A stretch of 57,023 bases of DNA from NCBI GenBank assembly GCA_041821565.1, contig JBGUEB010000001.1:1-57023 (forward strand), read 5' to 3'. Below, piece by piece: positions 1-21,881 of this stretch. The first letter of the stretch is position 1; each line of letters starts with the position of its first letter. Below the pieces are notes generated by a model that was not told where the DNA came from, searched no databases, and was given only the letters and a program-made list of their open reading frames with translations. Origin of the DNA: Gammaproteobacteria bacterium (GTDB lineage Bacteria; Pseudomonadota; Gammaproteobacteria; GCA-001735895). A program made the position numbers and the translations under genes.

Positions 1-415
1 CCCAATGTGACGATAAAGATGCTAAATTCCGTGTCGTGGAACTAAATATACCTGTTGCAGTGTATGAGAAATGGTTGGATTCTATTATCAGAATTTCCGG
101 AGATATTTCTTTAATTCCAGTTTTTCCTTTATGCACCATTTGGCACCTGTCCCACATGGGGTGTGATGTAAAGCCGGGCGCGATATATTCAATAAGATGA
201 TTTGAAACTAAGTTTATTTCACATAGAAAGAGATTGCTCTCATTTTTAATTATGATTTCTATACAGGCATCCTTCTCTGAATGCTTTCCAACTGAAACAA
301 ATAGATCATCGAAATAGCGAGTCTCTACTTGAGACATTATCTTCTGTATTGACTCTCCGACAATCTGGAGCTCATTCTTCTTTGGAGGAAACAATTTTCT
401 TAGCAACTTCTTCAT
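1..415 (-). CDS. Hypothetical protein (cassette ORF, runs off the left window edge)
   Basis: Own translation of the - strand: ATG at 415 (alternative in-frame ATG at 337), 12 nt after the GTTAAG end of attC copy 1. The frame is open to position 1 (138 codons). It is absent from the ORF track because no stop lies in the window. No motif recognised. Confidence 0.5.
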   Translation of the reverse strand, partial: MKKLLRKLFPPKKNELQIVGESIQKIMSQVETRYFDDLFVSVGKHSEKDACIEIIIKNESNLFLCEINLVSNHLIEYIAPGFTSHPMWDRCQMVHKGKTGIKEISPEILIIESNHFSYTATGIFSSTTRNLASLSSHW

Positions 416-427
416 CAGTATGTTCGC

Positions 428-485
428 TTAACGCTTCGCATCAGCGGCGCGGCTCTGCCGCGTCCGACTGCATGCGTTTGTAATG
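428..485 (-). repeat. attC-like site, copy 1 (its ORF-proximal box reads CATTAC instead of CATAAC)
   Basis: ttaacgcttcgcatcagcggcgcggctctgccgcgtccgactgcatgcgtttgtaatg. Same family as 1328, 2085 and 3113. Lies 3' of the OsmC-family ORF. Confidence 0.7.
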
Positions 486-626
486 TGGCAAGGGTATATT
501 CCTAACACAAAAAGACGTCAATATGATTAAATTGTATTTACTAGCATGGATGATCGTGCACCAATAATTCGTAACTGGTTTTTGACAAGGGTGTTTTTCA
601 AATTGAATTCTGGCGGTAAATCAAAC

Positions 627-1148
627 TTAAGACAGTTCTATTTTTACTGATACTGCCCGACTTAAGGTGTGGCCTACTGGCGACGTTTTGGTGACTTTTT
701 TGTGCAAGGCTTCGAGGTCCGCTGCTGAAGCATCGCTGTCAATCTTCACCTTCACTGAAATGCCGCTGTAGCCCGCATTGCTATCTGAAAGGCCAAGAAA
801 AGTGTGTAGATCGATATCACCTTCAAGGTCGATAGAAAGATCTCTAATTTCAATGCCTGCAACAGTCGCATTTGCGGCATACCCTACTGCCAAACAATTA
901 CCCAAAGCCGCGAGGACTTGCTCTACTGGATTTGGACCTGTGTTACTACCACCTAGCGCTGGCGGTTCGTCTGAGGCTAATGGTTCGAAATCTCGAATCG
1001 TCGCTTCAGACCGAAATCCACCCTTCCATTTCACCTGTGCATTCCATTTGGTGTTCGCGACTTCCGGCTCTTCCTGAATTTTCCCCACCAGACTAGCCAC
1101 TGAGTCAATATCAACATCATTTAATTTAGTTTCTTCAGCTGTAGACAT
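627..1148 (-). CDS. OsmC/Ohr-family peroxiredoxin-like protein
   Basis: 173 aa. The 'GPNPVEQVLAALGNCLA' segment and overall length are typical of the OsmC family. Single ORF in a cassette-sized unit. Confidence 0.85.
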   Translation of the reverse strand: MSTAEETKLNDVDIDSVASLVGKIQEEPEVANTKWNAQVKWKGGFRSEATIRDFEPLASDEPPALGGSNTGPNPVEQVLAALGNCLAVGYAANATVAGIEIRDLSIDLEGDIDLHTFLGLSDSNAGYSGISVKVKIDSDASAADLEALHKKVTKTSPVGHTLSRAVSVKIELS

Positions 1149-1204
1149 TTTCGAGTACCTTCGCAGTGGGTAGAATAATCGAAGTTACTCCAATTAAAGA
1201 ATGA

Positions 1205-1240
1205 TGACAATGTTCAAAAGAGACCGGTTGAACAATGTCA
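1205..1240. promoter_or_regulatory. 13-bp inverted repeat (tgacaatgttcaa-N10-ttgaacaatgtca) in the 5' leader of the OsmC-family cassette
   Basis: 12 of 13 positions are complementary. Located 57-92 nt upstream of the ATG at 1148, within a ~180-nt leader. Confidence 0.3.
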
Positions 1241-1327
1241 AATCATTTGATTGTTTAGACTCGTGGAGGGCTCAGTTGAAATCTGGGGTCAGGATATGCA
1301 CCAGTTGAGTCAGCTGCTGTCGTGCCA

Positions 1328-1386
1328 CATAACGCCTCGCATCAGCGGCCCAGCTTTGCTGGGTCCGACTGCATGCGATTGTTATG
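1328..1386 (-). repeat. attC-like site, copy 2
   Basis: cataacgcctcgcatcagcggcccagctttgctgggtccgactgcatgcgattgttatg. The terminal cataac/gttatg boxes pair perfectly. Confidence 0.75.
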
Positions 1387-1438
1387 CGCAAGATACGTAG
1401 TAATTTCAATAACTACCGTACAGGTTACTAAGTACCAT

Positions 1439-1684
1439 TTATTTGGCATTATCCCGGCGGGATTGCTTTACAAATGTAGAAATATACAAATCTTCCACCT
1501 TATCTCTGGCCCATTGGGTTTTACGCAAAAACTTCAGTGATGATTTTACTGATGGATTACTCTTGAAACAGTTTATGTCGACTCTCTGAGCCATTCCATC
1601 CCAGCCGTAATGCTCTACTAACCTCGCTACAACTTTCGCGAGCGTTAGACCATGCAAGGGATTATTCAATTGTTCACTACTCAT
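1439..1684 (-). CDS. DUF2132 / VF530-family small putative DNA-binding protein
   Basis: 81 aa. '[17 protein letters not shown]....RV.INCF...[23 protein letters not shown]' matches the DUF2132 signature as I recall it. Confidence 0.75.
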
Positions 1685-1776
1685 AACATTCGATGCACCT
1701 ATATTACTCTGAATGTTTTTGGTCGATAACGCGAAGATGAGAGGTGCCGTTTGCGGCGTCGATTTTGACGATCATA

Positions 1777-2025
1777 TTATTCCGTTTTGTTTACAGCTCT
1801 TTTGACACGAATCTTATTACTGGCAACAGTCATATTATTCAAATTTTTCATTGCTACCTTGGCTTCTCCTGGTTTCGGCATTTCCACAAAAGCAAAACCT
1901 TTGGATCCACCGGTGGTTTTATCTGACACTAAATCACAAGATTGTACGGTGCCATATTCCTGAAAAAGAGCCTTTACCTCTCCTTCGGTAGTGCTACGAG
2001 CAAGATTACGAATTATCAATTTCAT
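1777..2025 (-). CDS. RRM (RNP-1) domain RNA-binding protein
   Basis: 82 aa. RNP-2-like 'KLIIRNL' and RNP-1-like 'KGFAFVEM' motifs at the typical spacing. Confidence 0.85.
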   Translation of the reverse strand: MKLIIRNLARSTTEGEVKALFQEYGTVQSCDLVSDKTTGGSKGFAFVEMPKPGEAKVAMKNLNNMTVASNKIRVKRAVNKTE

Positions 2026-2084
2026 AAGTTAATAAGCCATTAAGTGGCAAGTGAATGTGCAGAATTCCATTTTACTGTTTTGCG

Positions 2085-2143
2085 TATAACGCCTCGCATC
2101 AGCGGCGCGGCTCTGCCGCGTCCGACTGCATGCTATTGTTAGG
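2085..2143 (-). repeat. attC-like site, copy 3
   Basis: tataacgcctcgcatcagcggcgcggctctgccgcgtccgactgcatgctattgttagg. Lies 3' of the DapB-like ORF. Confidence 0.75.
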
Positions 2144-2233
2144 CGATATTTTGAATTCCATGCCGGATGGCTGTAATGTGCCCAGTCCAAACGAAATATC
2201 CATCTAGTATATCGCGGGATAGTCCAAGAGATT

Positions 2234-3034
2234 CTATTTGTGTAGCATGTCATCCATGCTGTAAAAGCCTGGTGGTTGGTTGCTGATCCACACTGCGCCA
2301 TCCAGAGTCGCCGGAGCGAAGGCTTTTTGATCGGTAACTCTGCTCGTAATTTCAAGACGTTGACCGGAACCCGCAAAAAATACTGTATTCTCGCAGACGA
2401 CATCACCACCACGCAGTGATGCGAAGCCAATTTTTCCGCGCTCTGGTTTTCCAGTTTCCCCATCACGCGAACGGAGCATTACATCAGACAATTTGACACC
2501 TCTTCCAGTAGCAGCATACTCGCCAAGTTCCAATGCAGTCCCTGATGGCGCGTCAATCTTATTCCAGGGGTGAAAATCGAATATCTCAATATCAAATTCA
2601 TCGTTCAGCATTCCCGCCGCTGTTTTTATCAGCTCATACATGACCATAACCGATACGCTCATGTTCGCCCCTAATATGATTGGCAAAAACTGGCCGGCCT
2701 CAACTAGCTTTGTGTGCTGTGACTCCGTAAATCCTGTTGTTGCAACCATTAGAGGAGTCTGTTTCTCGACTGCCGTTGGTATCAAACTCATAGTGGCCGA
2801 TGCTGCGCTGTAGTCAACAACGACATCGGATTCCTCGCATAAGGCACCAACATCGTCGGTGACCTCGATACCGAGCGGTATTAACCCCGCTAGTGTACCA
2901 AGGTCCTTACCGAGCTCGGACGACCCGGGTCTCTCGCAACCGCCGGCAAGTGTGCACTTGTCGCTTTCATGGATTGCCTTTATTAGTATCTTGCCCATAT
3001 GGCCTGCCGCGCCGAATAGTCCTATTTTCGTCAT
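2234..3034 (-). CDS. 4-hydroxy-tetrahydrodipicolinate reductase (DapB)-like protein, divergent paralogue
   Basis: N-terminal Rossmann 'KIGLFGAAGHMG', 'ATTGF' and 'DAPSGTA' align with E. coli DapB. Start moved to the ATG at 3034; the track used an upstream TTG at 3067. Confidence 0.8.
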   Translation of the reverse strand: MTKIGLFGAAGHMGKILIKAIHESDKCTLAGGCERPGSSELGKDLGTLAGLIPLGIEVTDDVGALCEESDVVVDYSAASATMSLIPTAVEKQTPLMVATTGFTESQHTKLVEAGQFLPIILGANMSVSVMVMYELIKTAAGMLNDEFDIEIFDFHPWNKIDAPSGTALELGEYAATGRGVKLSDVMLRSRDGETGKPERGKIGFASLRGGDVVCENTVFFAGSGQRLEITSRVTDQKAFAPATLDGAVWISNQPPGFYSMDDMLHK

Positions 3035-3112
3035 TTTCTTCTCGCTTTGGTTAGGGGGAATAGACAAAGATTATACGAAAGCTGTCATTGTGTGTAGGCT
3101 GTTTCGATATCG

Positions 3113-3170
3113 CCTAACGCCGGCATCAGCGGCCCAGCCCTGCTGGGTCCGACTGCATGCGTTTGTTATG
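3113..3170 (-). repeat. attC-like site, copy 4
   Basis: cctaacgccggcatcagcggcccagccctgctgggtccgactgcatgcgtttgttatg. Lies 3' of the methyltransferase ORF. Confidence 0.75.
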
Positions 3171-3177
3171 ACCTGGC

Positions 3178-3738
3178 TTACAGTCGTGCGTAATTATAAA
3201 CATTGCTTTGTTCGTGAGTTTGTTTAAACAAATTCGATTGAACGATGAGATTTGGTATCCAGTTATGGATTAAAGGAGGAAAGAGCCATATTGACATGGT
3301 AGACCCAGGTTTAAGAACTCGATACATTTCTGGCAATAATTTATCCAACGGTAATAACGGGAAAGGGATAACACCAAACAATAGGGCCTTATCGATGCTC
3401 TCATTTTCTAGCCCGGTATTAAGAGCGTCTCTCTGCAAGATTGTGACGTTTTTTAAATTAGCCGCTTGTACTTTTTTAGCTACTTCTTTGAGAAATCCTG
3501 AAGATGCATCCAATGCTATTATTTGTCCTCGGTCACCCACCATTTGTGCAGCAGGTATGGTGAAAAAACCTGTGCCACATCCTACCTCCAAAACAGTTTG
3601 ACCCGGCTGAATATCCGCAATTCTCAGTTGCTTCACAGGATCCATAATCCATTTTCTTACTCTACTCCCCATAAGTAATCCGGACGGTTTGAAAATTAAA
3701 TTTATTATTCTTGAATTACCTAAATCTTCTGTTTTCAC
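3178..3738 (-). CDS. Class I SAM-dependent methyltransferase
   Basis: Motif I 'VLEVGCGTGFF' and 'ALD' (post-I), with later 'PGS' region. GTG start at 3738 preceded by AGGGTG. ATG alternatives exist at codons 23 and 32. Confidence 0.75.
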   Translation of the reverse strand: MKTEDLGNSRIINLIFKPSGLLMGSRVRKWIMDPVKQLRIADIQPGQTVLEVGCGTGFFTIPAAQMVGDRGQIIALDASSGFLKEVAKKVQAANLKNVTILQRDALNTGLENESIDKALLFGVIPFPLLPLDKLLPEMYRVLKPGSTMSIWLFPPLIHNWIPNLIVQSNLFKQTHEQSNVYNYARL

Positions 3739-3754
3739 ACTAGTTCACCCTAAG

Positions 3755-3791
3755 GCATAACAGCCTATTTAAAAGGTCGTTGACCTTTTAA
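3755..3791 (-). other. Candidate attI / first cassette boundary: GTTATGC box (- strand) next to a perfect 10-bp inverted repeat
   Basis: rc of 3755-3761 is GTTATGC, the same box type as the attC ends, 17 nt before the GTG at 3738. ttaaaaggtc-gtt-gaccttttaa lies at 3769-3791. Confidence 0.3.
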
Positions 3792-3984
3792 TATATATTA
3801 GCGAGTCGACTTGATAAATTGGGAGTGGGTAATTAGAGATTTTCATCGCATTGCTTCCTCTCGGTTTTTACTGCGGTTAATATTTTGTTCTTTATTATCG
3901 AGTCAATGACTTGATAATACTCTTGAATTTCTCGGAGTTGTTGGTTAAGTTGTTTCGAATAGTTTATCGAAAGGACTCGTTACT

Positions 3985-4711
3985 ATGCCGACTCGAACTC
4001 AATACACTTCTCCATTTTTGCAATCAGTCTCTAATTATATGGCGGTGCGTCGATATAGCAAACGCACAATCAAGTCGTATCTGTACTGGATCAAATATTT
4101 CATTGTCCAACAAAAAAAGCGGCACCCTAAAGAAATGGGCGCGGTAGAAATTGAAAAGTTTTTAACCTATCTTGCAGTTGAACAAAAAGTGTCGATCGCC
4201 ACTCAGAAGCTTGCCTTGAACGCTCTGGCTTTTTTATACAACCGGGTGCTTGAACAACCACTGGGTAATCTGGGCGAGTTCAATCGAGCCAAGCGGCAGC
4301 GTAATTTACCGATTGTTTTAACACGTCAGGAAGTTTCGCTATTACTATCCCGAATGAAGGGCGTAGACCAGCTGATGGCATCAATGATTTATGGTTCAGG
4401 ATTGAGGCGAACCGAGGCAGTACGCTTACGCGTCAAGGATGTAGACTTCGATCATCAGGAATTACAAATATGGAATGGCAAAGGTTCTCATAATCGGTTG
4501 ACTACTCTGCACTTGCTCGAATCGGGAGCTGGCCGGTTTTTGCTCCGAAACGTCGGACCGCTGCAAAGCCGGCATACACTACATCCATGTAGATAACATT
4601 CGCACGGTGCAAGAGCAACTCGGTCACCAGGATGTGAAGACTACAGAAATCTACACCCATGTTTTAAAGCGAGGCGCGCACGGGGTGCGTAGCCCGTTCA
4701 GCGATTTGTAA
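3985..4711 (+). pseudogene. intI: Integron integrase (IntI) pseudogene: in-frame internal deletion plus frameshifting 64-nt insertion
   Basis: The N-terminal 175 aa align by eye with VchIntIA/IntI1 ('YSKRTIKSYLYWIKYFI..KRHP..MG..EIEKFLTYLAVEQKVS..TQ..ALNAL.FLY', 'GSGLRRTEAVRLRVKDVDFD', 'IWNGKGSHNR'). The ORF jumps straight to 'HLLESGA' and stops at 4596. In the +1 frame it continues '[37 protein letters not shown]', ending at 4711. Confidence 0.8.
4532..4595. repeat. 64-nt palindromic insertion interrupting intI
   Basis: Removing 4532-4595 restores '[17 protein letters not shown]'. The insert contains the hairpin gccggtttttgc..tccga-aacg-tcgga..gcaaagccggc and a ctacatccatgtag motif. Boundaries are ambiguous by a few nt. 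Confidence 0.5.
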
Positions 4712-4773
4712 ATAGTGTTCGTTTCGATTACTTCCGGCGTTATATAATTCGTTTTTTTTGCAGGATTCAATTT

Positions 4774-5448
4774 ATGACCGATTCACCGCTTGTTATTGAG
4801 ACAGGGTCGCAACCACCCGACAGTTGCGTGATCTGGTTGCATGGCCTGGGTGCCGACGGCCATGACTTTGAACCGATTGTGCCGGAGTTGAGACTGGATC
4901 CGGGTCTCAATACTCGTTTTATCTTCCCGCATGCGCCGATGATCCCGGTGACGATTAACCAGGGCTTTGTGATGCGGGCCTGGTACGACATTCGCGAGAA
5001 CAGGATCGAGGCCGAACAGGATGAAGCGGGTATTCGACAATCGGCGCAAGCCCTTGTGCAGTTAATCGAAGAGCAGGTTGAGTCGGGGATTGCCACCGAA
5101 CGAATGGTACTGGCCGGGTTTTCACAGGGCGGTGCGATTGCCCTGTTTACCGCGTTACGTTATCCGCGGCAACTCGCCGGGGCGATGGTGTTGTCGTCTT
5201 ATATGCCCTTGTCACAAAGCCTTGAAGCCGAGAAAAATGAGGCCAATAGTGACATGCCGATCTTTCTTGCGCATGGCTCCGATGATCCTGTAATACCGGT
5301 TGATCTGGCTTACCGCACACGTAGTCAACTGGAACAACAGGATTATACGCTGAACTGGCATGAATACGCGGGCATGGCGCATAGTGTATCGGCACAGGAA
5401 ATCTACGATATTGCGGAGTGGTTACAGCAAACCCTGGCCCCGGCTTAA
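4774..5448 (+). CDS. Carboxylesterase / phospholipase-family alpha/beta hydrolase
   Basis: 224 aa. '[12 protein letters not shown]' and the nucleophile elbow 'GFSQGGA', with later 'HG..D' residues. Confidence 0.85.
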
Positions 5449-6833
5449 TGCGCGATTAGTTTGCGGCAGGCGGCAACCTGTTTTCGAACCTGTTCGGGTG
5501 CGGTGCCGCCGGTAATGTTCCTGGCATTCACCGAACCCTCGAGCGACAACAAATCGAATACATCGGCTTCTATGCGTCGTTCAAACGAGTGCAGCTCCTG
5601 CAGTGTGCATTCGCTTAAGTCTTTCTGTTTTTCAATCGCGTAAGCGACCGCGCTGCCGACTACTTCGTGGGCGTCGCGAAATGGCAGGCCCTTATTGACC
5701 AGGTAGTCGGCGAGATCAGTTGCGGTCGCGTAACCTTTTTTTGCCGACTCGTACATCGCCTCACGATTGACACTGAGATTTGGCACCATGTCGGCAAATG
5801 CGCGCAGGCTGCCACCCAGTGTATCGAGCACGTCGAACAGGGGTTCCTTGTCTTCCTGGTTATCCTTGTTGTATGCCAGTGGCTGCGATTTCATCAGGGT
5901 GAGTAGACTCACCAGGTGTCCGTTCACACGTCCGCTTTTACCCCGTACCAGTTCCGGCACATCGGGGTTTTTCTTTTGCGGCATGATCGACGAACCGGTG
6001 CAGTAGCGATCAGGCAGGCGAATAAAATTGAACTGTGCAGTCGACCAGATGACCAGTTCTTCGGCCATTCTCGACAGGTGGGTCATACAGATGGCCGCGG
6101 CCGCACAGAATTCGATGGCGAAGTCACGATCACTCACTGCATCGAGCGAGTTCCTGGCCGGTGCGTCGAAACCCAGAAGCTCGGCCGTATAATCCCGATC
6201 AAGCGGGTAAGAAGTGCCCGCCAGTGCGGCCGCCCCGAGCGGCATGATGTTCATGCGTTGCTGGCAATCTTTGAAGCGGTCATGGTCGCGCTCGAGCATT
6301 TCAAACCAGGCCAGCATATGGTGGCCGAAGCTAATCGGCTGTGCGACCTGCATGTGCGTAAAACCCGGCATGATGGTGTCGGCCTCGCGTTCGGCAAGAT
6401 CGAGCAGGCCGTGTTGGAAGGTCCTGATCTGTTTCAGGCACGGGTTGATCTCTTCGCGCAGGTAAAGCCGAATATCGGTGGCGACCTGATCGTTTCGGGA
6501 ACGACCGGTATGCAGTTTCTTGCCGGCGTCACCGATCAGCTCGGTAAGCCGTGCTTCTATATTCATATGCACGTCCTCAAGGCTTACCGACCAGTCAAAT
6601 TTACCACTGGTGACCTCTTCGCTGATCTTTGCCATACCCTGTTCGATGGCAGCATGTTCATCATCATCCAGGATACCGATCTTGTGCAGCATTTTTGCAT
6701 GCGCAAGCGAACCCTGTATGTCGACCAGGGCAAGGCGTTGATCAAACTCGACCGAGGCGGTAAAAGCCTCGACAAAGGCATCGGTGGGTTCGTTGAATCG
6801 ACCGCCCCACATACGGGTATCTTTCTTAGTCAT
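5445..6833 (-). CDS. argH: Argininosuccinate lyase
   Basis: 462 aa. 'MWGGRF' N-terminus and fumarate-lyase signature '[12 protein letters not shown]'. The start could be the internal ATG at 6812. Confidence 0.95.
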
Positions 6834-6979
6834 AAAATCATAAATGGTCTATATATATAAGGTGTAATCTTTGCCGATCCTGCGGCCGACGCGGAAAAAT
6901 GCGCCTTGCCAGGTACCGTGGAATGCCCCTGGGGGCATTGCCGTATGCTTACAGCGCTAGTCAAACAAATCAATAGTTT

Positions 6980-8035
6980 ATGTCTAATCAACCCGAAAAA
7001 ACGCAATCAATGATCAAAAATGACAGTTATCTGCCCAATTTTTGCGATGTTTCGGTATTTTTGCGCGTATTGCTGGTGATCCAACTAATCGCGATCGTGT
7101 TTGCGTTGGTCAGTTATCGCAGTGGCAGCCTGTACGTGTTAATTGCCCTCAACTCGGTTTTTATGCAATGGATCGGCCTGAGTGTTGCAGGGATTCTATG
7201 CGGTATCAAGCGCCTCGGCTACCTGCGTGATACGCGGCTATCGACTATTGTGGCAATGGGTGTGACCCTGGTTGTAACCCTGCTGGTGAGCTGGTTGAGC
7301 GAGTATTTCTCAGAAATGCTGCGCCTCGAATCACAATCACAGGATATCGGCTTTACGTTGTTGCGCAACGCGGCCATAGCGATGATCTTGATTGGCCTGG
7401 CATTACGCTATTTTTATGTTCAGTACGAATCCGAAAAAACCCTCGAAATTCAGGCTCAGGCACGACTGCAAGCCTTGCAGGCACGCATTCGGCCCCATTT
7501 CCTGTTCAATAGTATGAATACTATTGCCAGCCTGACCCACGACCACCCCGACCTTGCCGAGCAGGCTATCGAAAACCTGTCGGATTTGTTTCGCGCCAGC
7601 CTCGCTGCCGAAGCCAGTATTCCACTGCAACAGGAACTGGAATTAACCCGTAGTTATATACAACTCGAGTCACTGCGCCTCGGCGATCGGCTATTCGTTA
7701 AATGGCACATGCCCTACGATGATATCGAGGTTTCGTTGCCTGCCCTGACGCTACAACCGCTGGTTGAAAATGCTATCTACCATGGTGTTGAGCCGTTATC
7801 GGAGGGTGGCGCCATCGACATTACAATCGACCGAGAGCATGATTTTACCCGCATTGTAATTTCTAACCCATTACTCGAAGACCGCACCGAGCAGCATCGT
7901 GAAGGCAATCAAATGGCAGTCGATAATATACGAGAGCGTCTGCAAATTGCGTTTAGTGGTGAGGCCACGATGCAACAGGTGGAAGACGATGATCGGTTTA
8001 CCGTTACCCTGAAGCTTCCGGCCAACCGGGCCTGA
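6980..8035 (+). CDS. algZ: LytS/AlgZ(FimS)-type sensor histidine kinase
   Basis: Multi-TM N-terminus, His_kinase motif 'RIRPHFLFNSMNTIASL' and ATPase 'ENAIYHG'. Sits in argH-algZ-algR-hemC synteny as in Pseudomonas. Confidence 0.8.
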   Translation: MSNQPEKTQSMIKNDSYLPNFCDVSVFLRVLLVIQLIAIVFALVSYRSGSLYVLIALNSVFMQWIGLSVAGILCGIKRLGYLRDTRLSTIVAMGVTLVVTLLVSWLSEYFSEMLRLESQSQDIGFTLLRNAAIAMILIGLALRYFYVQYESEKTLEIQAQARLQALQARIRPHFLFNSMNTIASLTHDHPDLAEQAIENLSDLFRASLAAEASIPLQQELELTRSYIQLESLRLGDRLFVKWHMPYDDIEVSLPALTLQPLVENAIYHGVEPLSEGGAIDITIDREHDFTRIVISNPLLEDRTEQHREGNQMAVDNIRERLQIAFSGEATMQQVEDDDRFTVTLKLPANRA

Positions 8036-8044
8036 GGAATCGTG

Positions 8045-8776
8045 ATGAAAGTTTTAATAGTTGACGATGAAAGACCAGCACGCGACCGTCTGACGCGAAT
8101 GCTTGGTGCTTTATCGGATTGTCAAATAGTCGGTGAGGCTGTTAACGGAACCGAGGCCCTCGAAAAAGCCGAATCACTTGGCCCCGATGTTGTATTAATG
8201 GATATCCGTATGCCGCGCATGGATGGCATACAGGCCGCGCGCCACCTGTCACGACTATCACGGCCACCAGCGGTAATTTTTACCACCGCCTTCGCCGATC
8301 ATGCGCTCGAAGCTTTTGAAACCCATGCGGTTGACTACCTGTTAAAACCAGTGCGCAAAGAGCGATTGGCCGCAGCACTCAAAGCGGCAAGTAAACCAAA
8401 CAGGGCACAGTCAACCCAAAATGAAACCATGTTATCTGAAATCGAGGTGCGCCAGCATATTTGCGCACGCGTACGAGGCAACCTGGTGTTGATTCCTGTT
8501 GATGGAATTTATTATTTTCAGGCAGACCAGAAATACGTCACCGTGCGCCATAGTGACGGTGAGGTGTTGATTGAAGATCCGCTTAAAAACCTGGAAAAGG
8601 AATTCGGTGAGCGTTTTTGCCGAATCCATCGCAATGCCCTGGTCAGTCTCGACAAGATTTGTGGTATGAAGACTGAAAACGATAGCCAGCAGGTTATCTT
8701 CAGGAATATCGACGATACCCTCGAAGTCAGTCGGCGTCACTTACCAGGTATTCGTAAAATCATAAAAAACCTGTAG
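8045..8776 (+). CDS. algR: LytTR-family response regulator (AlgR-like)
   Basis: Receiver domain 'KVLIVDDE...[10 protein letters not shown]' followed by a C-terminal LytTR domain. ATG at 8045 (the track used GTG at 8042). Confidence 0.85.
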
Positions 8777-9796: not shown

Positions 9797-10591
9797 ATGC
9801 CTGCGCACCCGTCAAAACTGCGCGGTCAATGCATCCTCAATACGCGGCCGCTTCATCAGCTAAACGGATTGACATCCCTGCTCGAGGCACAGGGCGCATG
9901 CGTTCTCGCATTTCCGGCGATTGAAATTGTCGAATCTGAAACCACCGGGTTTCATCGTAGCCTGGCTGAAAATATTAAACATTATCAAATCGCCCTGTTT
10001 GTCAGTCGCAATGCGGTGGATGGCGCCTTCGGTTTCCTGGCCGGAGCATCGCTACCCGCCGATTTGCAATTGGGGGTAATAGGTCAGGGAACTTATACGG
10101 CGCTTGCAGATCGAGTAGATGATCTGGATCAACATCTAATTCTCGGGCATCCGTATAATAGTGAGGGCTTGTTAGCCTGTGCAGCATTACAACAGGTGAA
10201 GGGTCGCAATATACTGATCTTCCGCGGCCAGCAGGGTCGAAATTTACTCGGCGATGAACTGCGCGCTCGCGGCGCCACGGTAACTTATTGCGAAGTTTAC
10301 CGGCGCAGGGCGCCAGATTACGAGGCAGATGCTTTTGAACGATTGACTGCCGGGCAGTTTCCGACCCTGGCTGTTTTTACCAGCAACGAGAGTATGCACA
10401 ATGCGCTGGCAGCCATACATGGTGAAGCGCGAGATAAAATGCTCGCGATTCCCTGGTTATTGATCAGCGAAAGAATGCGTGAATCGGCGCTGAATCTGGG
10501 ACATAATGGTGTCATTCTCATCGCCACCGACGCGAATGATGAAGGCATAAGACGAACCATTAATGAGTGGGCAAGCAGTCTGAAGTTATGA
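9797..10591 (+). CDS. hemD: Uroporphyrinogen-III synthase
   Basis: 264 aa located between hemC and hemX. HEM4-like pattern ('ILNTRP', 'VSRNAV'). Confidence 0.8.
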   Translation: MPAHPSKLRGQCILNTRPLHQLNGLTSLLEAQGACVLAFPAIEIVESETTGFHRSLAENIKHYQIALFVSRNAVDGAFGFLAGASLPADLQLGVIGQGTYTALADRVDDLDQHLILGHPYNSEGLLACAALQQVKGRNILIFRGQQGRNLLGDELRARGATVTYCEVYRRRAPDYEADAFERLTAGQFPTLAVFTSNESMHNALAAIHGEARDKMLAIPWLLISERMRESALNLGHNGVILIATDANDEGIRRTINEWASSLKL

Positions 10592-11991
10592 GTAAAAAAC
10601 AACCACCCGGCAAAAAAGAGATCAGCGAAGACCCCGTGCTTACTGATAAAACACCAACAGCCCCCGTGCCTGCTGATAAGGCCCCGGTTAAAAGTGATGT
10701 GGCCAGTAGTGGCGACGATAAGCCGATTGAAGCAAAGGGAGAACATAAGCCGGAAGCTGAATCGGTCGCAAAGTCCGATACAAAACCAGCAGATGCGGAA
10801 GCAAAGTCCGATACAAAACCAGCAGATGCAGTAGCAAAGCCAGATACAAAACCAGCGGATACGGCGAAACACAAGGCAGAGATAAAACCAGCCGCAAAAG
10901 CGCCAACAAAACCACCACCTGCCCCGAAGGCTAAAGAAACACCGAAGCCAGGCAGAGGTTTTCCGGTTCTTGGTTTGCTCAACCTGGTGTTAATCGTCGG
11001 TATCATCGCGGCTGCTGCCTGGTACTGGCAAATGCAGCAAAAGCTTGAACTGCAAAGACAGGAAAGCCTGTCGGCATTTCAGCAACAGCTCAAACAACAA
11101 CTCAGTACCAAGGCGGATCAATCGACTACACAGCAAATTCAACAACGCCTGCGGCCACTGGAATCCGTTATCGGCGATTCGGCAAACCAGATCGGTGAAT
11201 TGCAGGACCAGCAGCAGGCGCTGCTGGAATCTACTGAAAAGCTTTACGAACTTTATGGCCGTGACGAAAATGGCTGGCAACTGGCCGAGGTGGAATACCT
11301 GATGCGTGTTGCCCAGCACAAGCTGATTCTGGAGAATGATTTCGAAGGCGCGGCTATGACCCTGCAGGCTGCTAGTGACAAAATTGCCGCCACCGCGGAT
11401 CCGGGACTGTTACCGGTGCGGGTGCAAATTAGCGATGAAATCGCCGGCCTCAAAACCCGTTCGCGTCCGGACCTGGTCGGCATGACCTTGCTGCTGGCAC
11501 AGTTGAGTAAACAAATCTATGCACTCAAGCCAGGTTATGAACCGCGCGTCGATACCAGCACAAAAGTTATTGAATCCGTGCCAGCCGATCCCTCCACGCT
11601 CAGCCTCGAAGAACGCGTGATGGATTTTATTACCTCGTTGGTGACAGTGAGTAAAAGCGAAACCATGCCGACTCGAATCGAAACCCTGACAATTGATATC
11701 GAAGAGCTACTGGAAAATAATCTCAAGCTCACGCGCTGGACCGTACTCGAGCGTGATGCTTTCCAGTATAAGCGTCTGATGGATGAAAACGTCGATTATT
11801 TCAAACAGTATTACGACCTGGATAACGCGGCGAACCATGATTTTTACTCGCAGTTACTGCAGTTGCAAAAGTCCCAGATCAAACCGGAAAAGCCGAATAT
11901 CAGTGGGTCACTGGAAATGTTGAGACATATTATTAGCCGACGGCAACTGGCCCCAGGCAACGACCTGGAACAGGAGGCTGGTGATGTTTAA
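10588..11991 (+). CDS. hemX: HemX-family membrane protein with a repetitive low-complexity N-terminus
   Basis: ATGA overlap with the hemD stop. K/P/A/D-rich N-terminus, one TM segment, then a coiled-coil/HemX-like C-terminus. Position in the hemCDXY operon. Confidence 0.8.
   Translation: MSKKQPPGKKEISEDPVLTDKTPTAPVPADKAPVKSDVASSGDDKPIEAKGEHKPEAESVAKSDTKPADAEAKSDTKPADAVAKPDTKPADTAKHKAEIKPAAKAPTKPPPAPKAKETPKPGRGFPVLGLLNLVLIVGIIAAAAWYWQMQQKLELQRQESLSAFQQQLKQQLSTKADQSTTQQIQQRLRPLESVIGDSANQIGELQDQQQALLESTEKLYELYGRDENGWQLAEVEYLMRVAQHKLILENDFEGAAMTLQAASDKIAATADPGLLPVRVQISDEIAGLKTRSRPDLVGMTLLLAQLSKQIYALKPGYEPRVDTSTKVIESVPADPSTLSLEERVMDFITSLVTVSKSETMPTRIETLTIDIEELLENNLKLTRWTVLERDAFQYKRLMDENVDYFKQYYDLDNAANHDFYSQLLQLQKSQIKPEKPNISGSLEMLRHIISRRQLAPGNDLEQEAGDV
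10768..10866 (+). repeat. In-frame 33-bp x3 tandem repeat inside hemX (AKSDTKPADAE-type 11-aa units)
   Basis: 10768-10800, 10801-10833 and 10834-10866 are near-identical. Confidence 0.9.
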
Positions 11992-19194: not shown

Positions 19195-20181
19195 ATGCGG
19201 GCTAACAGTTATCGAATCGATGCTTTGCAGTACGCCAACTGGTCGAAGAAAATTTTTCGACAAATGCGCGAGGGTAAGGTAGATGCAGTGCATGTCACCA
19301 TTGCCTACCATGAAAACTTTCGTGAAACAGTGGCTAACATCGAAGCCTGGAATAGCGATTTTGAACGTTTTCCAGATTTGATTTTCCAGGGTAAAACCGG
19401 AGAAGACGTGCGCCTCGCGCGCGCGACCGATCGTACTGCTATTTTCTACGGCTTTCAAAATCCGTCCCCAATGGAAGACGATATTCGCCTGGTCGAGATT
19501 CTGCATACCCTGGGCGTCCGCTTCATGCAGCTAACCTATAATAACCAGTCTTTGCTCGGTACCGGATGTTACGAGAATAACGATTCCGGCATTACGCGCA
19601 TGGGAAAGGAAGTGATCGAGGAGATGAACCGCGTCGGACTGGTCGTGGATATGAGTCATTCCGCCGAACAATCGACATTGGAGGCGATAGAGATCAGTTC
19701 GCGTCCGATAGTCATTACGCATGCCAATCCTGGATTCTGGGAACCGGCTTTACGAAACAAGTCCGATACCGTACTGCGCGAACTTGGTGCATCAGGCGGC
19801 ATGCTCGGTTTCAGCATGTACCCGCATCATTTAAAAGGCAAAGGAGATTGCACGCTACAAAGTTTCTGCAAAATGATTGCGGCGACTGCCGAGCTGATGG
19901 GTGTCGACCATATCGGACTCGGCTCTGACCTGTGCCAGGATCAGCCGGATTCGGTGGTCGAATGGATGCGCGTCGGTCGCTGGACCAAAAAGATCGATTA
20001 TGGTGAAGGCTCGGCCGGCAATGCTGGTTTTCCGCCGATGCCGAACTGGTTCAATGATAACCGCGATTTCGGCAATGTTGAGCAGGGCCTGCGAGATGTA
20101 GGTTTCAGTGATGAAGATACTGGAAAAATAATGGGTGATAACTGGCTTCGATTCTTTGATGAGAATTTCGGGCCCGAATGA
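19195..20181 (+). CDS. Membrane(renal)-dipeptidase family (peptidase M19) protein
   Basis: 328 aa. 'DMSHS', 'ITHANP' and 'GLGSD' motifs. GAGGAG RBS 7 nt upstream. Confidence 0.8.
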   Translation: MRANSYRIDALQYANWSKKIFRQMREGKVDAVHVTIAYHENFRETVANIEAWNSDFERFPDLIFQGKTGEDVRLARATDRTAIFYGFQNPSPMEDDIRLVEILHTLGVRFMQLTYNNQSLLGTGCYENNDSGITRMGKEVIEEMNRVGLVVDMSHSAEQSTLEAIEISSRPIVITHANPGFWEPALRNKSDTVLRELGASGGMLGFSMYPHHLKGKGDCTLQSFCKMIAATAELMGVDHIGLGSDLCQDQPDSVVEWMRVGRWTKKIDYGEGSAGNAGFPPMPNWFNDNRDFGNVEQGLRDVGFSDEDTGKIMGDNWLRFFDENFGPE

Positions 20182-21881
20182 ACACTAACTCACAGAAAGA
20201 TAATCGGTTCGACTGTGCGCATCTAAACCCGATGCCAGAGGCAGCGGCTTACCGGCGCCCGCCAGAAGTGGTCATGCGCCTGGCGCGCATGGGCAGTTTT
20301 CATCAAACCAGGCTGTCCTTCATGCGTAGCCTGTTGCGCCGGCTGAAGAAAGAAAAGTGGCGATTCAAACGCCCAGTCTGGGAAATTGGAGATGAAGGAT
20401 ATGGGCGTGCCGTCTATACCGTCATAGGCCCGCAACGTAGTTATTCACTGGTCGCATTTTCGCATAAGCTAGCCGATGACATGCGTTCCGACCGGGTTAT
20501 AGCCACCGCCTGGGACGCAACCTTTGCCCTGTTCGATGGGGTGCCGACCAGTGACGATCTGGATCGATTGCAGGAAAACGTTCCCAGGCAGGAAGCCGGT
20601 CGCATCAGCGATAGCGAGTTGAGCCTGTCGCGGGCGAACCGTTCGGTGCGATTATGGAAGCATGTCATCGACAGTCTCGCGGCAGGGCGGCAACCCGATC
20701 GCCAACAACTGGAGTCGGTCGGCTACCTGGTGCGTACTACTGCGGTTTATGGTTCAGGGAAATTTGGCGCCGCCGATCGATTGACGATCTGCGATCGACC
20801 CGAGCTCAGCGGCCCGTTCCAGGCGGAAATGTTATCGGTCTGGCTCACGCGCGCGTTTTCAATCGACCTGGTTGAACATATTGCGAAAGCCGTCGGCGGC
20901 TCAAAAGCAGTGGTAATAGATTCGGATTTACGCCGACGCATTGGCGTCGGTAATTCAACCGGTTTGGGTATGGCGCCATTTTTAATTAACCATCCGGTCC
21001 TGCTCAATAACTGGATGTTCGCGCGTGAAGAGGCGCTGGCCAGGGTACGCTCGCTTGCCGAGACCAGCACAGGGGCAATTGAAGTTTTCAAACAGCAGCT
21101 CGGCCAGGCAAAGTTTAATGTCTCGCAATGGCATTCCGAACACCCGATACAAATACGGAAACTGCAGCAACTCGGTGCAGACCTGGAAAAGATGACGGCT
21201 TATGTTGAAACCGAATCGTTGAGCGGGAATCATCCCTGGGATCGTTTTTATCGTTGGGCTGAAGAGCAGCTGTCACTGGAGGGGCAGGAGCAGTTGCTGT
21301 CATTAATGCTGGAACCTTACGGTGAGATGGTAGACGGACTGACACAGTGCATGGATGCCGACGAACATCGCAGCTTTTTTATCGATGGTTCGATGGGCAT
21401 AGGCCGTATGCGGGAAATTATTGAAGACCAGTGTGACTGGGCAATCTCAGTTGACTACCAGGAAAACAAAAATCGAGCCCGATTCTGGTACACCTCGGTG
21501 GAAAAGCTTGAACCGCGCGTGGGGGAACGATTCGAAGAAGCGGGTGCGGAGTATGAACAACCCCTCTGTATCGGCTATTTTATACGGCAATTGTACGATG
21601 ACTTGCTCGAGTGGGATCGCGATCAGAGCATTGCCGGATTTTTACTCGCCCATCCGCAGCACCGTCATACAGTCCGACGCGTCCAGACCCTGGTATCACA
21701 TCCCTACTCCGAGATACGCGATAACCTCATAGCTGCCGACATGCTGCCAATCGATTTACTGCGCTGCAAGCTGTCGTTCTTTGGCGCCACCAAATTTGAT
21801 CCGCGCTCCGATCGTTGGGTGCGTATCTGCATGTATCAGGACGCGCCCTTCCCACACGAGTTGTTGGCTAGAGTCGAATGA
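20178..21881 (+). CDS. Conserved-looking hypothetical protein, 567 aa, no recognisable domain
   Basis: Long uninterrupted ORF. ATGA overlap with the dipeptidase stop indicates translational coupling. No motif I can assign. Confidence 0.7.
   Translation: MNTNSQKDNRFDCAHLNPMPEAAAYRRPPEVVMRLARMGSFHQTRLSFMRSLLRRLKKEKWRFKRPVWEIGDEGYGRAVYTVIGPQRSYSLVAFSHKLADDMRSDRVIATAWDATFALFDGVPTSDDLDRLQENVPRQEAGRISDSELSLSRANRSVRLWKHVIDSLAAGRQPDRQQLESVGYLVRTTAVYGSGKFGAADRLTICDRPELSGPFQAEMLSVWLTRAFSIDLVEHIAKAVGGSKAVVIDSDLRRRIGVGNSTGLGMAPFLINHPVLLNNWMFAREEALARVRSLAETSTGAIEVFKQQLGQAKFNVSQWHSEHPIQIRKLQQLGADLEKMTAYVETESLSGNHPWDRFYRWAEEQLSLEGQEQLLSLMLEPYGEMVDGLTQCMDADEHRSFFIDGSMGIGRMREIIEDQCDWAISVDYQENKNRARFWYTSVEKLEPRVGERFEEAGAEYEQPLCIGYFIRQLYDDLLEWDRDQSIAGFLLAHPQHRHTVRRVQTLVSHPYSEIRDNLIAADMLPIDLLRCKLSFFGATKFDPRSDRWVRICMYQDAPFPHELLARVE

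Follow-up and report, generated by a model that had tools for sequence, protein, structure and literature searches.

A decayed sedentary integron carrying a conserved two-hairpin element at one codon of its integrase gene

The first 4711 nt of a 57,023-nt stretch of contig JBGUEB010000001.1 (hereafter the window, 57 kb in length) very probably hold the integrase-proximal end of a real but inactivated sedentary chromosomal integron. The host is an uncultured marine-type gammaproteobacterium. From left to right, the locus consists of a fifth, partial cassette, four complete cassettes, an attI site and the divergent remnant of an integron integrase gene, intI (3985–4711). Every part of the layout on which the original prediction of an integron relied (divergent intI, attI and promoterless unidirectional open reading frames (ORFs) with attC sites) could be located in the window. 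As an integron, the locus belongs to an already well-known kind: it is one more decayed sedentary array, useful but unsurprising. The unexpected part is a conserved two-hairpin element lodged at one intI codon. This inserted element, and not a random indel, is what had been read as a frame-shifted C-terminus.

The ORF at 3985 scores as an integron integrase and not as XerC or XerD. Its residues 11–175 match positions 1–165 of the NCBIfam integron integrase profile TIGR02249 at 198.7 bits, and the C-terminus, read in the +1 frame, matches positions 277–315 at 63.1 bits. The XerC and XerD models score the same ORF at 55–60 bits. Among solved structures, VchIntIA comes nearest (2A3V, E 2e-47; XerA, 1.6e-14). 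In a contig from a related metagenome-assembled genome (MAG; L065), the orthologous IntI scores 432 bits (cutoff 265) over the full 315 positions of the profile, with one in-frame stop, and its residues 4–174 share 60% identity with residues 1–175 of the window gene. The alignment with integron integrases that had been made by eye is therefore upheld, as is the distinction from XerC/XerD. The accompanying description, two-thirds of an integrase followed by a frameshift, stands in part: both portions match, but they are separated by a 318-nt deletion and a 64-nt inserted element.

These lesions can be placed precisely on the plus strand. The N-terminal remnant (3985–4509) encodes residues 1–175, with the SAM-like N domain, the box I Arg and GKG. 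It ends at a deletion junction (4509/4510) where 318 nt encoding residues 175–280 are missing. Window 3755–4509 corresponds to positions 6849–7603 of the reverse complement of a related contig, L112, and 4509–5267 to its positions 7921–8679; the missing segment is 7604–7920. Beyond the junction lie the codons for HLLESGA and the first base of an Asp codon (4510–4531; 19 of 21 nt identical to L065 2890–2910), followed by the inserted element (4532–4595). The C-terminal remnant (4596–4711) resumes with the AC of the Asp codon and runs through IYTHV...SDL to a stop; it keeps the second His and the catalytic Tyr motif and is 87% identical to L065 residues 288–325.

The deletion is in frame and takes out box II His-x-x-Arg together with the IntI-specific patch (..GVxLPxALxRKYPxA..) between the catalytic blocks, which is present in L065 and L112. 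With the patch and the box II His and Arg gone, the gene is predicted to be dead regardless of its other lesions; judged by its codons, the locus descends from a true intI and no longer encodes one. Its earlier placement between a complete integron and a cluster of attC sites lacking integron integrases (CALIN) is apt, given the loss of residues 175–280. In the study describing CALIN, a recognisable intI pseudogene was near just 15 of 279 (PMC4889954), and a C-terminal profile criterion such as the one applied there (>50% coverage) would probably miss the present remnant. Decay appears to be recent: the 24 substitutions separating 175 N-terminal codons of the window from those of the sister contig L087 fall 5, 2 and 17 by codon position, a third-position bias that suggests selection on the integrase protein until recently. 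Among homologues, P0050, P0068, P0080, P0081 and P0120 have in-frame deletions of roughly the same middle region, running from after GKG..HR to before box II with both ends kept.

The inserted element is a unit of 49–50 nt that forms two hairpins, joined by a CATACA linker and followed by an ATA tail. Hairpin 1 has an 11-bp stem with a bulged T and closes on GC-TCCT-GC; the stem sequence varies and covaries (GGCCGGTTTT/AAAACCGGC, GGTCGG../..CCGAC, CAGGAAT/ATTCCTG, CTGGAAAT/ATTTCCAG and others). Hairpin 2 reads CTACA-TCC(A/C)-TGTAG. Covariation extends to this hairpin also: among 59 distinct copies, 12 of the 13 with TTACA make the paired switch to TTACA/TGTAA, and one-sided variants are absent among the pattern-matched copies. 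Strand-specific wobble G.T pairs (12 on the plus and 23 on the minus strand) are uninformative. Its position in intI is inside the Asp codon of G-x-D-I-R-T-V-Q, with the G before the element and AY after it. There is no target duplication, and GTAG/CTAC motifs are present. The window carries a 64-nt expanded-loop copy, in which the loop of hairpin 1 contains a further small hairpin; it interrupts the Asp codon of G-A-D-I-R-T-V-Q and shifts the intI C-terminus into the +1 frame. This copy is 92–95% identical to those of L096, L109 and L112; for L096 and L109, with integrases distant from its own, the figure is 92–94%. Recognition of the element also disposed of earlier interpretations. An apparent attC remnant at 4551–4571 (18 of 21 positions matching the attC top strand, a score reached by 5 of 2000 shuffled sequences and by 3 of 2078 genomic windows) belongs to the element's expanded loop and the 3′ arm of hairpin 1, with near-identical copies in the unrelated intI genes of the same three contigs, and gives no evidence of an attC-mediated deletion. 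Readings of 4510–4594 as scrambled sequence or as a DIRTV codon duplication are likewise superseded.

The element is common at this position. A homologue search with residues 1–175 returned 1246 proteins at E≤1e-20, and none of the best 120 exceeds 307 residues. Many homologues share odd tails after HLLESGA that correspond to window frames 1 and 3 across 4531–4596. Close homologues that reach the site are evenly split, 14 with the element and 14 without, and in those that carry it the element is often the sole lesion. At the DNA level, L088, L089 and L090 have the same insert at the same site, and their C-terminal codons continue undamaged in another frame. When metagenomes were scanned for the hairpin-2 module, a search biased toward the element by design, 75 matches in 70 loci emerged; 33 fall within intI, and 33 of 33 occupy the same codon in the same orientation. 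In at least 17 intI genes, 40–65% identical to the L065 IntI, the element is the sole lesion: the N-terminal part is unbroken, and the C-terminal part, of 37–47 residues with LGH..IYTHV, is intact. It offsets the frame by +1 in most of these genes, by +2 in five and by 0 in one. Element copies average 86% identity between intI genes, compared with 55% for 180-nt flanks (compared ungapped), and the element is the more conserved of the two in 402 of 406 pairs. Surveys of intI by ORF length or C-terminal profile would systematically misclassify a large clade, roughly half of the close homologues scored here.

The remaining 42 matches occupy intergenic positions, and their orientation with respect to neighbouring genes is mixed (24 same, 31 opposite). 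Some sit between housekeeping genes such as nuoI and nuoJ, and others form head-to-tail arrays, for example 3 × 49 nt in L095. Because these copies are intergenic, dispersed, found in either orientation and arrayed in tandem, the element outside intI behaves as a family of repetitive extragenic palindrome (REP)- or bacterial interspersed mosaic element (BIME)-like repeats. Rfam 15 at gathering thresholds found no match in the window. On an element array, Rfam gave sub-threshold scores only (group-II-D1D4-3, 20.5 bits against a threshold of 32; RsmY, 14 against 57). The element had no match in a plasmid collection, and its core 14-mers did not occur in the searchable literature. The reverse strand of the element forms two hairpins with GGA loops, and the reverse complement of hairpin 2 resembles the RUACARGGAUGU consensus. 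A role as a CsrA sponge was nonetheless rejected: the orientation counts show no bias, and no Rsm/Csr family in Rfam scored significantly.

How the element affects intI can be read in three ways: inactivation by a mobile element, reversible excision, or bypass in translation. Taken by itself, the reading of a site-specific mobile element that inactivates intI is the one toward which we lean, with considerable reserve. It is favoured because the boundaries are sharp and the copies far more alike than their hosts, because near relatives differ in presence (L112) or absence (P0105, P0085, P0068), and because three alleles of the window lineage each gained a different second lesion: the 318-nt deletion in the window, a nonsense codon near residue 195 in L112, and a 330-nt deletion running into the element in L087. 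A more tentative possibility is that the element is reversibly excised or bypassed in translation, the two routes being considered together. By this account, which we regard as doubtful, the sole-lesion genes still make integrase, by hairpin bypass or by precise excision of the DNA, and the window descends from such a gene. The many very diverged intI genes with both parts intact and no other lesion argue for it, and so do the close relatives with and without the element. When L096 and L104 are compared over the first 45 nt after the element, a by-eye count gives about 7 synonymous changes and 1 non-synonymous change. Precise removal of the element would restore the split Asp codon, and LexA boxes are absent from these integrons. 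REP or IS200-type hairpin elements can be excised reversibly.

The variable frame offset (+1, +2 or 0) argues against the bypass route. A programmed frameshift is rejected, since the shift needed differs among copies. A hop like that in T4 gene 60 fares no better, as no codon pair is valid across all copies: GAC/GAU could serve as take-off and landing sites in some and GGC/GGC in others, and neither pair is available in L094 or L146. Moreover, all three element-bearing alleles of the window lineage acquired further inactivating lesions, as relaxed selection after an insertion predicts, and independent recent insertions would also yield the sole-lesion pattern. An inactivating mobile element thus remains our preferred interpretation. 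The combined proposal, in which a site-specific mobile element acts as an excisable or bypassed switch at one intI codon and provides reversible, non-SOS silencing, is speculative, and we consider it improbable though far from negligible. The integrase is costly to its host (PMC3510236), and an element that homes or can be excised would bear on the control of this cost. If the switch exists, many environmental ‘intI pseudogenes’ would be interrupted but recoverable genes.

The recombination sites of the array form a single four-member family of 60-nt imperfect palindromes (428–487, 1329–1388, 2086–2145 and 3113–3172). They are direct copies, 78–88% identical, and a repeat search of the window spaced them 901, 757 and 1027 nt apart, in keeping with the proposal that each unit ends in an imperfect palindrome of 58–59 bp. 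The core patterns TAACGCNNNGCATCAGCGGC and GTCCGACTGCATGC are confined to these sites in 57 kb, with counts reached by 0 of 100 shuffles. A one-genome-per-species scan for CATCAGCGGC-N10-18-GTCCGACTGCATG retrieved 83 stretches with the attC core, mostly from MAGs of marine-type Gammaproteobacteria, with other phyla also represented. An attC covariance model, distinct from the IntegronFinder model, was built here from 78 distinct non-window copies. The structure written onto their alignment comprises the R box, an unpaired spacer, an L box whose 3′ arm has three bulges, and the terminal stem. Pairing holds in 91% of cells, compared with 24–34% when partners are slid, and double-sided changes number 97 versus 40±4.5 in shuffles. 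The variation resides almost wholly in the terminal stem; the L box is fixed by the search pattern and hence uninformative.

Applied to the whole window with filters off, the covariance model recovered the four sites, each on the plus strand, at 71–86 bits (E 1e-24 to 1e-30), and no other match below E 0.4 save weaker reverse-strand images of the same sites. The attC of cassette 4 (425–487; R′ TTAAC ... R″ GTAAT) scores 79.5 bits (E 1.4e-27), and the 3′ arm of its hairpin has three bulges of one base each. The attC of cassette 3 (1326–1388) scores 86.3 bits (E 3.3e-30) and folds at −21.5 kcal/mol (z −7.4). Those of cassettes 2 (2083–2145) and 1 (3111–3172; top-strand R′ GTTAGGC) score 80.3 bits (E 7e-28) and 71.3 bits (E 2e-24). 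Folded as single-stranded DNA, each site yields the expected hairpin on its plus strand, with a T, an A and a C bulging from the 3′ arm. This strand is therefore assigned as the bottom, recombinogenic strand, which fits cassettes that lie on the minus strand. As attC sites do, the four combine inverse core sites (AAC/GTT) and an imperfect palindrome with extrahelical bases and a terminal structure that varies.

These properties bear on the alternative that the repeats are generic REP palindromes, the ORF at 3985 a decayed Xer- or phage-type recombinase, and the layout a coincidence. The repeats are indeed imperfect palindromes downstream of genes, as REPs are. However, none lies outside the array in 57 kb, and all four share one polarity and a cassette-sized spacing. 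In other genomes the covariance model found 232 sites; loci with many hits (for example L021, L083, L084, L068, L038 and L080) carry them in a single orientation, 0.4–1.2 kb apart, and L044, L049, L050 and L070 combine this attC type with matches to full-length intI. The cassettes are modular between genomes, and the IntI scores lie far above those of XerC/XerD. The absence of stray copies, the intI-linked arrays elsewhere and the IntI-specific scores refute this alternative, which we regard as extremely improbable. Both checks that had been suggested for the repeats, a covariance-model search and a search for scattered copies, thus favour attC sites.

The MAGs with a near-identical attC core (L004–L086) carry assignments to Gammaproteobacteria, Desulfobacterales, Haliangium, Bacteroidota, Cyanobacteria, Spirochaetes, Actinomycetes, Thermotogae and others. 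This multi-phylum distribution points to cross-phylum cassette sharing or to mis-binning of MAGs. In the most distant phyla there is a subfamily with a GCGAGGTACGAGC centre, which is no obvious palindrome. Sharing of attC types within taxa and environments has been described (PMC8352920).

With the crossover set between the G and the TT of R′ on the top strand, the boundaries give four complete minus-strand cassettes of 643, 1028, 757 and 901 nt, close to the roughly 640, 1030, 760 and 900 first estimated. Cassette 1 (3118–3760) encodes a class I SAM-methyltransferase (3178–3738; Pfam Methyltransf_25/31/11); a look-up of contigs encoding this protein found no record with its start codon. Cassette 2 (2090–3117) encodes DapB, 4-hydroxy-tetrahydrodipicolinate reductase (2234–3067; TIGR00036, 220.6 bits, cutoff 122). 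Cassette 3 (1333–2089) encodes an RRM protein (1777–2025; RRM_1, E 1e-20) and a VF530 protein, the former DUF2132 (1439–1684; E 3.5e-34). Cassette 4 (432–1332) encodes an OsmC-like protein (627–1148; Pfam OsmC, E 9e-19). Pfam thus bears out the cargo assigned by eye. Two expectations hold only partly. A fifth unit is present (1–431, minus strand, bounded by the attC crossover at 432/431), with a frame of at least 138 codons running from about 415 off the left end, but just four of the five units are complete. Each unit does end in an attC, but the third carries two ORFs with no attC between them. The covariance model with filters off has no match in 1685–1776, and the fold of this 92-nt spacer does not exceed shuffles (z −0.42). 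A hidden attC is thus rejected; since the spacer lacks both match and structure, cassette 3 is either a single cassette with two genes or a fusion in which the attC between them has eroded past recognition.

The units behave as cassettes between genomes. The methyltransferase cassette, whole and with nothing beyond it, is 79% identical to L064 5264–5914 from a Desulfobacterales MAG; the match runs from the attC and ends no more than 4 nt from the attI crossover. The OsmC cassette has an 82% identical copy at a different array position in L112. Two Logan contigs of about 900 bp (L001 and L002; 100% and 99.6% identical) span 452–1353 and end inside the flanking attC sites. The first cassette of L087 and L112 has no match to that of the window. 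For this attC subtype, the locus thus shows cassette modularity across phyla. In L087 (1–150), the first cassette opens with an ORF MTVLSINLNKIALLRNSRGYDFPSV.. that looks PdxJ-like by eye.

The predicted attI adjoins intI (3755–3830, minus strand), with a top-strand core GTTATGC at 3761–3755 and a predicted crossover between G3761 and T3760, that is, at G and TT. Homology of the window with L087 and L112 (93–95% identity) starts at the TAAC of this site, and similarity to L087, L112 and L064 breaks off no more than 4 nt from the attI core in each case. A conserved 10-bp hairpin beside the crossover (3769–3791; AAAAGGTC..GACCTTTT, then TAATATATATTAGCG) has a counterpart in L065 (1845–1867; AGAAGGCC..GGCCTTCT) with pairing kept by compensatory changes; on the plus strand the window hairpin scores terminator-like. 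The spacer between attI and intI (3831–3984) has promoter-like hexamers in both directions and no LexA box. The best LexA score upstream of intI in the window is 11/20, compared with 17/20 at the intact intI of Amphritea balenae (L070), which has the box TACTGTATATAAACACAG just before its start. The region upstream of intI has no LexA box in L065 or L068 either. The LexA box over the intI promoter that marks SOS-regulated integrons is thus absent from the window.

The integron lies in a chromosomal setting. Next to intI are a carboxylesterase gene (4774–5448, plus strand; Pfam Abhydrolase_2) and argH (5445–6833, minus strand), which together span 4774–6833. Further housekeeping genes follow, including hemCDXY, mnmG, parAB, the atp operon and glmUS. 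The intI–esterase junction recurs in L065, L087 and L112. In L065 the order is attC array, attI, intI, esterase and argH, and the same esterase/argH flank in an independent assembly (L003) confirms the continuity of the window. By its housekeeping flanks and its locus common to relatives, the integron is sedentary and chromosomal. From 3738 down to 1, every ORF lies on the minus strand, divergent from intI, as first noted, and the block is AT-richer than its flank (windowed GC 0.38–0.50 over 1–4250, 0.52–0.58 in the esterase/argH flank), again in line with the first description.

Some features weigh against the view of a simple, vertically inherited sedentary integron. The window ends within the array, which is therefore seen only in part. 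Promoter-like sites, including the candidate cassette promoters on the minus strand (4061–4034, TTGCTA-16-TATAAT, directed toward the array; 3906–3879), are no commoner than in shuffles. GC skew stays positive over 5–57 kb, and the plus strand holds most of the genes; on this basis the plus strand, bearing the attC bottom strands, would be the lagging-strand template. This probable assignment, drawn from skew, is the minority orientation: in 25 of 30 sedentary integrons the leading-strand template carries the bottom strands, and the lagging-template orientation has been linked to easier folding and smaller arrays (PMC5371416). Finally, the attI–intI platform (3755–4711) is 93–98% identical to L087 and L112 (93–95% in most of the comparisons), and the adjacent esterase (4774–5267) only 76–78%, or about 77%. 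Third codon positions differ from L087 by 9.7% in intI and by 50% in the esterase, and the L087 and L112 esterases are of one type (95.8% identical). This gap means that the locus is not purely vertical; it suggests that the platform was swapped between lineages more recently than the flanks diverged, or that the short contigs are chimeric. The right-hand break of platform similarity was observed at the intI stop codon.

The difference in first cassettes also raises the question of whether the array is still active through an integrase supplied in trans, from a second chromosomal or mobile integron, which would render the intI remnant irrelevant and make the locus, in function, a CALIN that goes on exchanging cassettes. 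We think this unlikely, if worth keeping in view. The near-identical platforms all carry the element, and yet the L087/L112 first cassette differs from that of the window, with the break at the attI crossover; that difference may, however, predate the lesions. The attC hairpins are intact and their type occurs in many taxa, but no second intI lies in the 57 kb. The assembly of the OsmC cassette as a separate contig of about 900 bp in two sequencing runs would be consistent with mobility; Logan contigs, however, also break at repeats for assembly reasons. The different second lesions and the 5/2/17 bias suggest recent and independent loss, and an inactivated integron remains the reading that we adopt.

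A plausible history can be assembled, in which the order of the lesions, the loss of activity and past mobility are reconstructed from sequence. Promoterless minus-strand cassettes, each ending in an aadA-like 60-nt attC, would have been inserted one by one at attI (between G3761 and T3760), the attC bottom strand (here the plus strand) folding into a hairpin recognised by IntI. First, or at least earlier, an element of the 49-nt type may have lodged in the Asp codon before the last catalytic block. The 318-nt in-frame deletion of residues 175–280 would have come later. The array would now be frozen unless an integrase is supplied in trans.

Several observations concern the remainder of the window. 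The mnmG-rsmG-parA-parB-atp-glmU-glmS order at 25.5–40.4 kb indicates that the region is origin-proximal. The window itself has no DnaA-box enrichment or cluster and no skew switch, and an oriC within it was rejected accordingly. A 567-residue ORF at 20178–21881 (plus strand), amid housekeeping genes, has no Pfam family at E≤1e-5. Inside a HemX-like ORF (10567–11991), a 33-nt tandem repeat (×3; 10768–10864), where AT skew reaches 0.40, is probably a repetitive charged linker.

Sedentary integrons with an inactivated intI have reportedly been described for Xanthomonas. Like these, the present locus has a divergent intI, attI, unidirectional promoterless cassettes, homogeneous attC sites (78–88%), a fixed locus in relatives, mostly uncharacterised accessory cargo and a decayed integrase. 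It differs in its lesions, which combine a clean in-frame loss of 318 nt with the insertion of a conserved repeat element, and in a platform 93–95% identical to that of organisms whose flanking esterase is only about 77% identical. The window attC sites appear to resemble attC(aadA1) in length (about 60 nt) and architecture, R″-L″-13-nt terminal stem-loop-L′-R′ with R boxes TAAC ... GTTA. They differ from attC(aadA)-type 59-base elements in an L-box (GCATCAGCGGC ... GTCCGACTGCATGC) that forms its own subtype, widespread in marine-type MAGs of several phyla, and in having three bulged bases rather than two.

The element at the intI codon has likenesses to two kinds of known system. It shares with the T4 gene 60 gap and the mitochondrial ‘byps’ elements a hairpin-bearing insert of about 46–50 nt within a coding sequence, an indifference to reading frame, related copies outside genes, and rare Arg codons (CGG, CGA, AGA) after the last in-frame sense codon. 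Unlike them, it has no universal take-off/landing pair and no stop codon after the take-off site. Other parallels are the REP/BIME and IS200/IS605-derived palindromic mini-elements, which similarly comprise short hairpin units, lie between genes in either orientation, form head-to-tail arrays, carry a bulged T in the main stem, leave no target duplication and have GTAG/CTAC motifs. The present element departs from these in being just 49 nt long with two hairpins, and in having one subfamily that keeps to a single codon within a protein-coding gene and to one orientation (33/33). It would thus be a rare REP-like case with single-codon target specificity.

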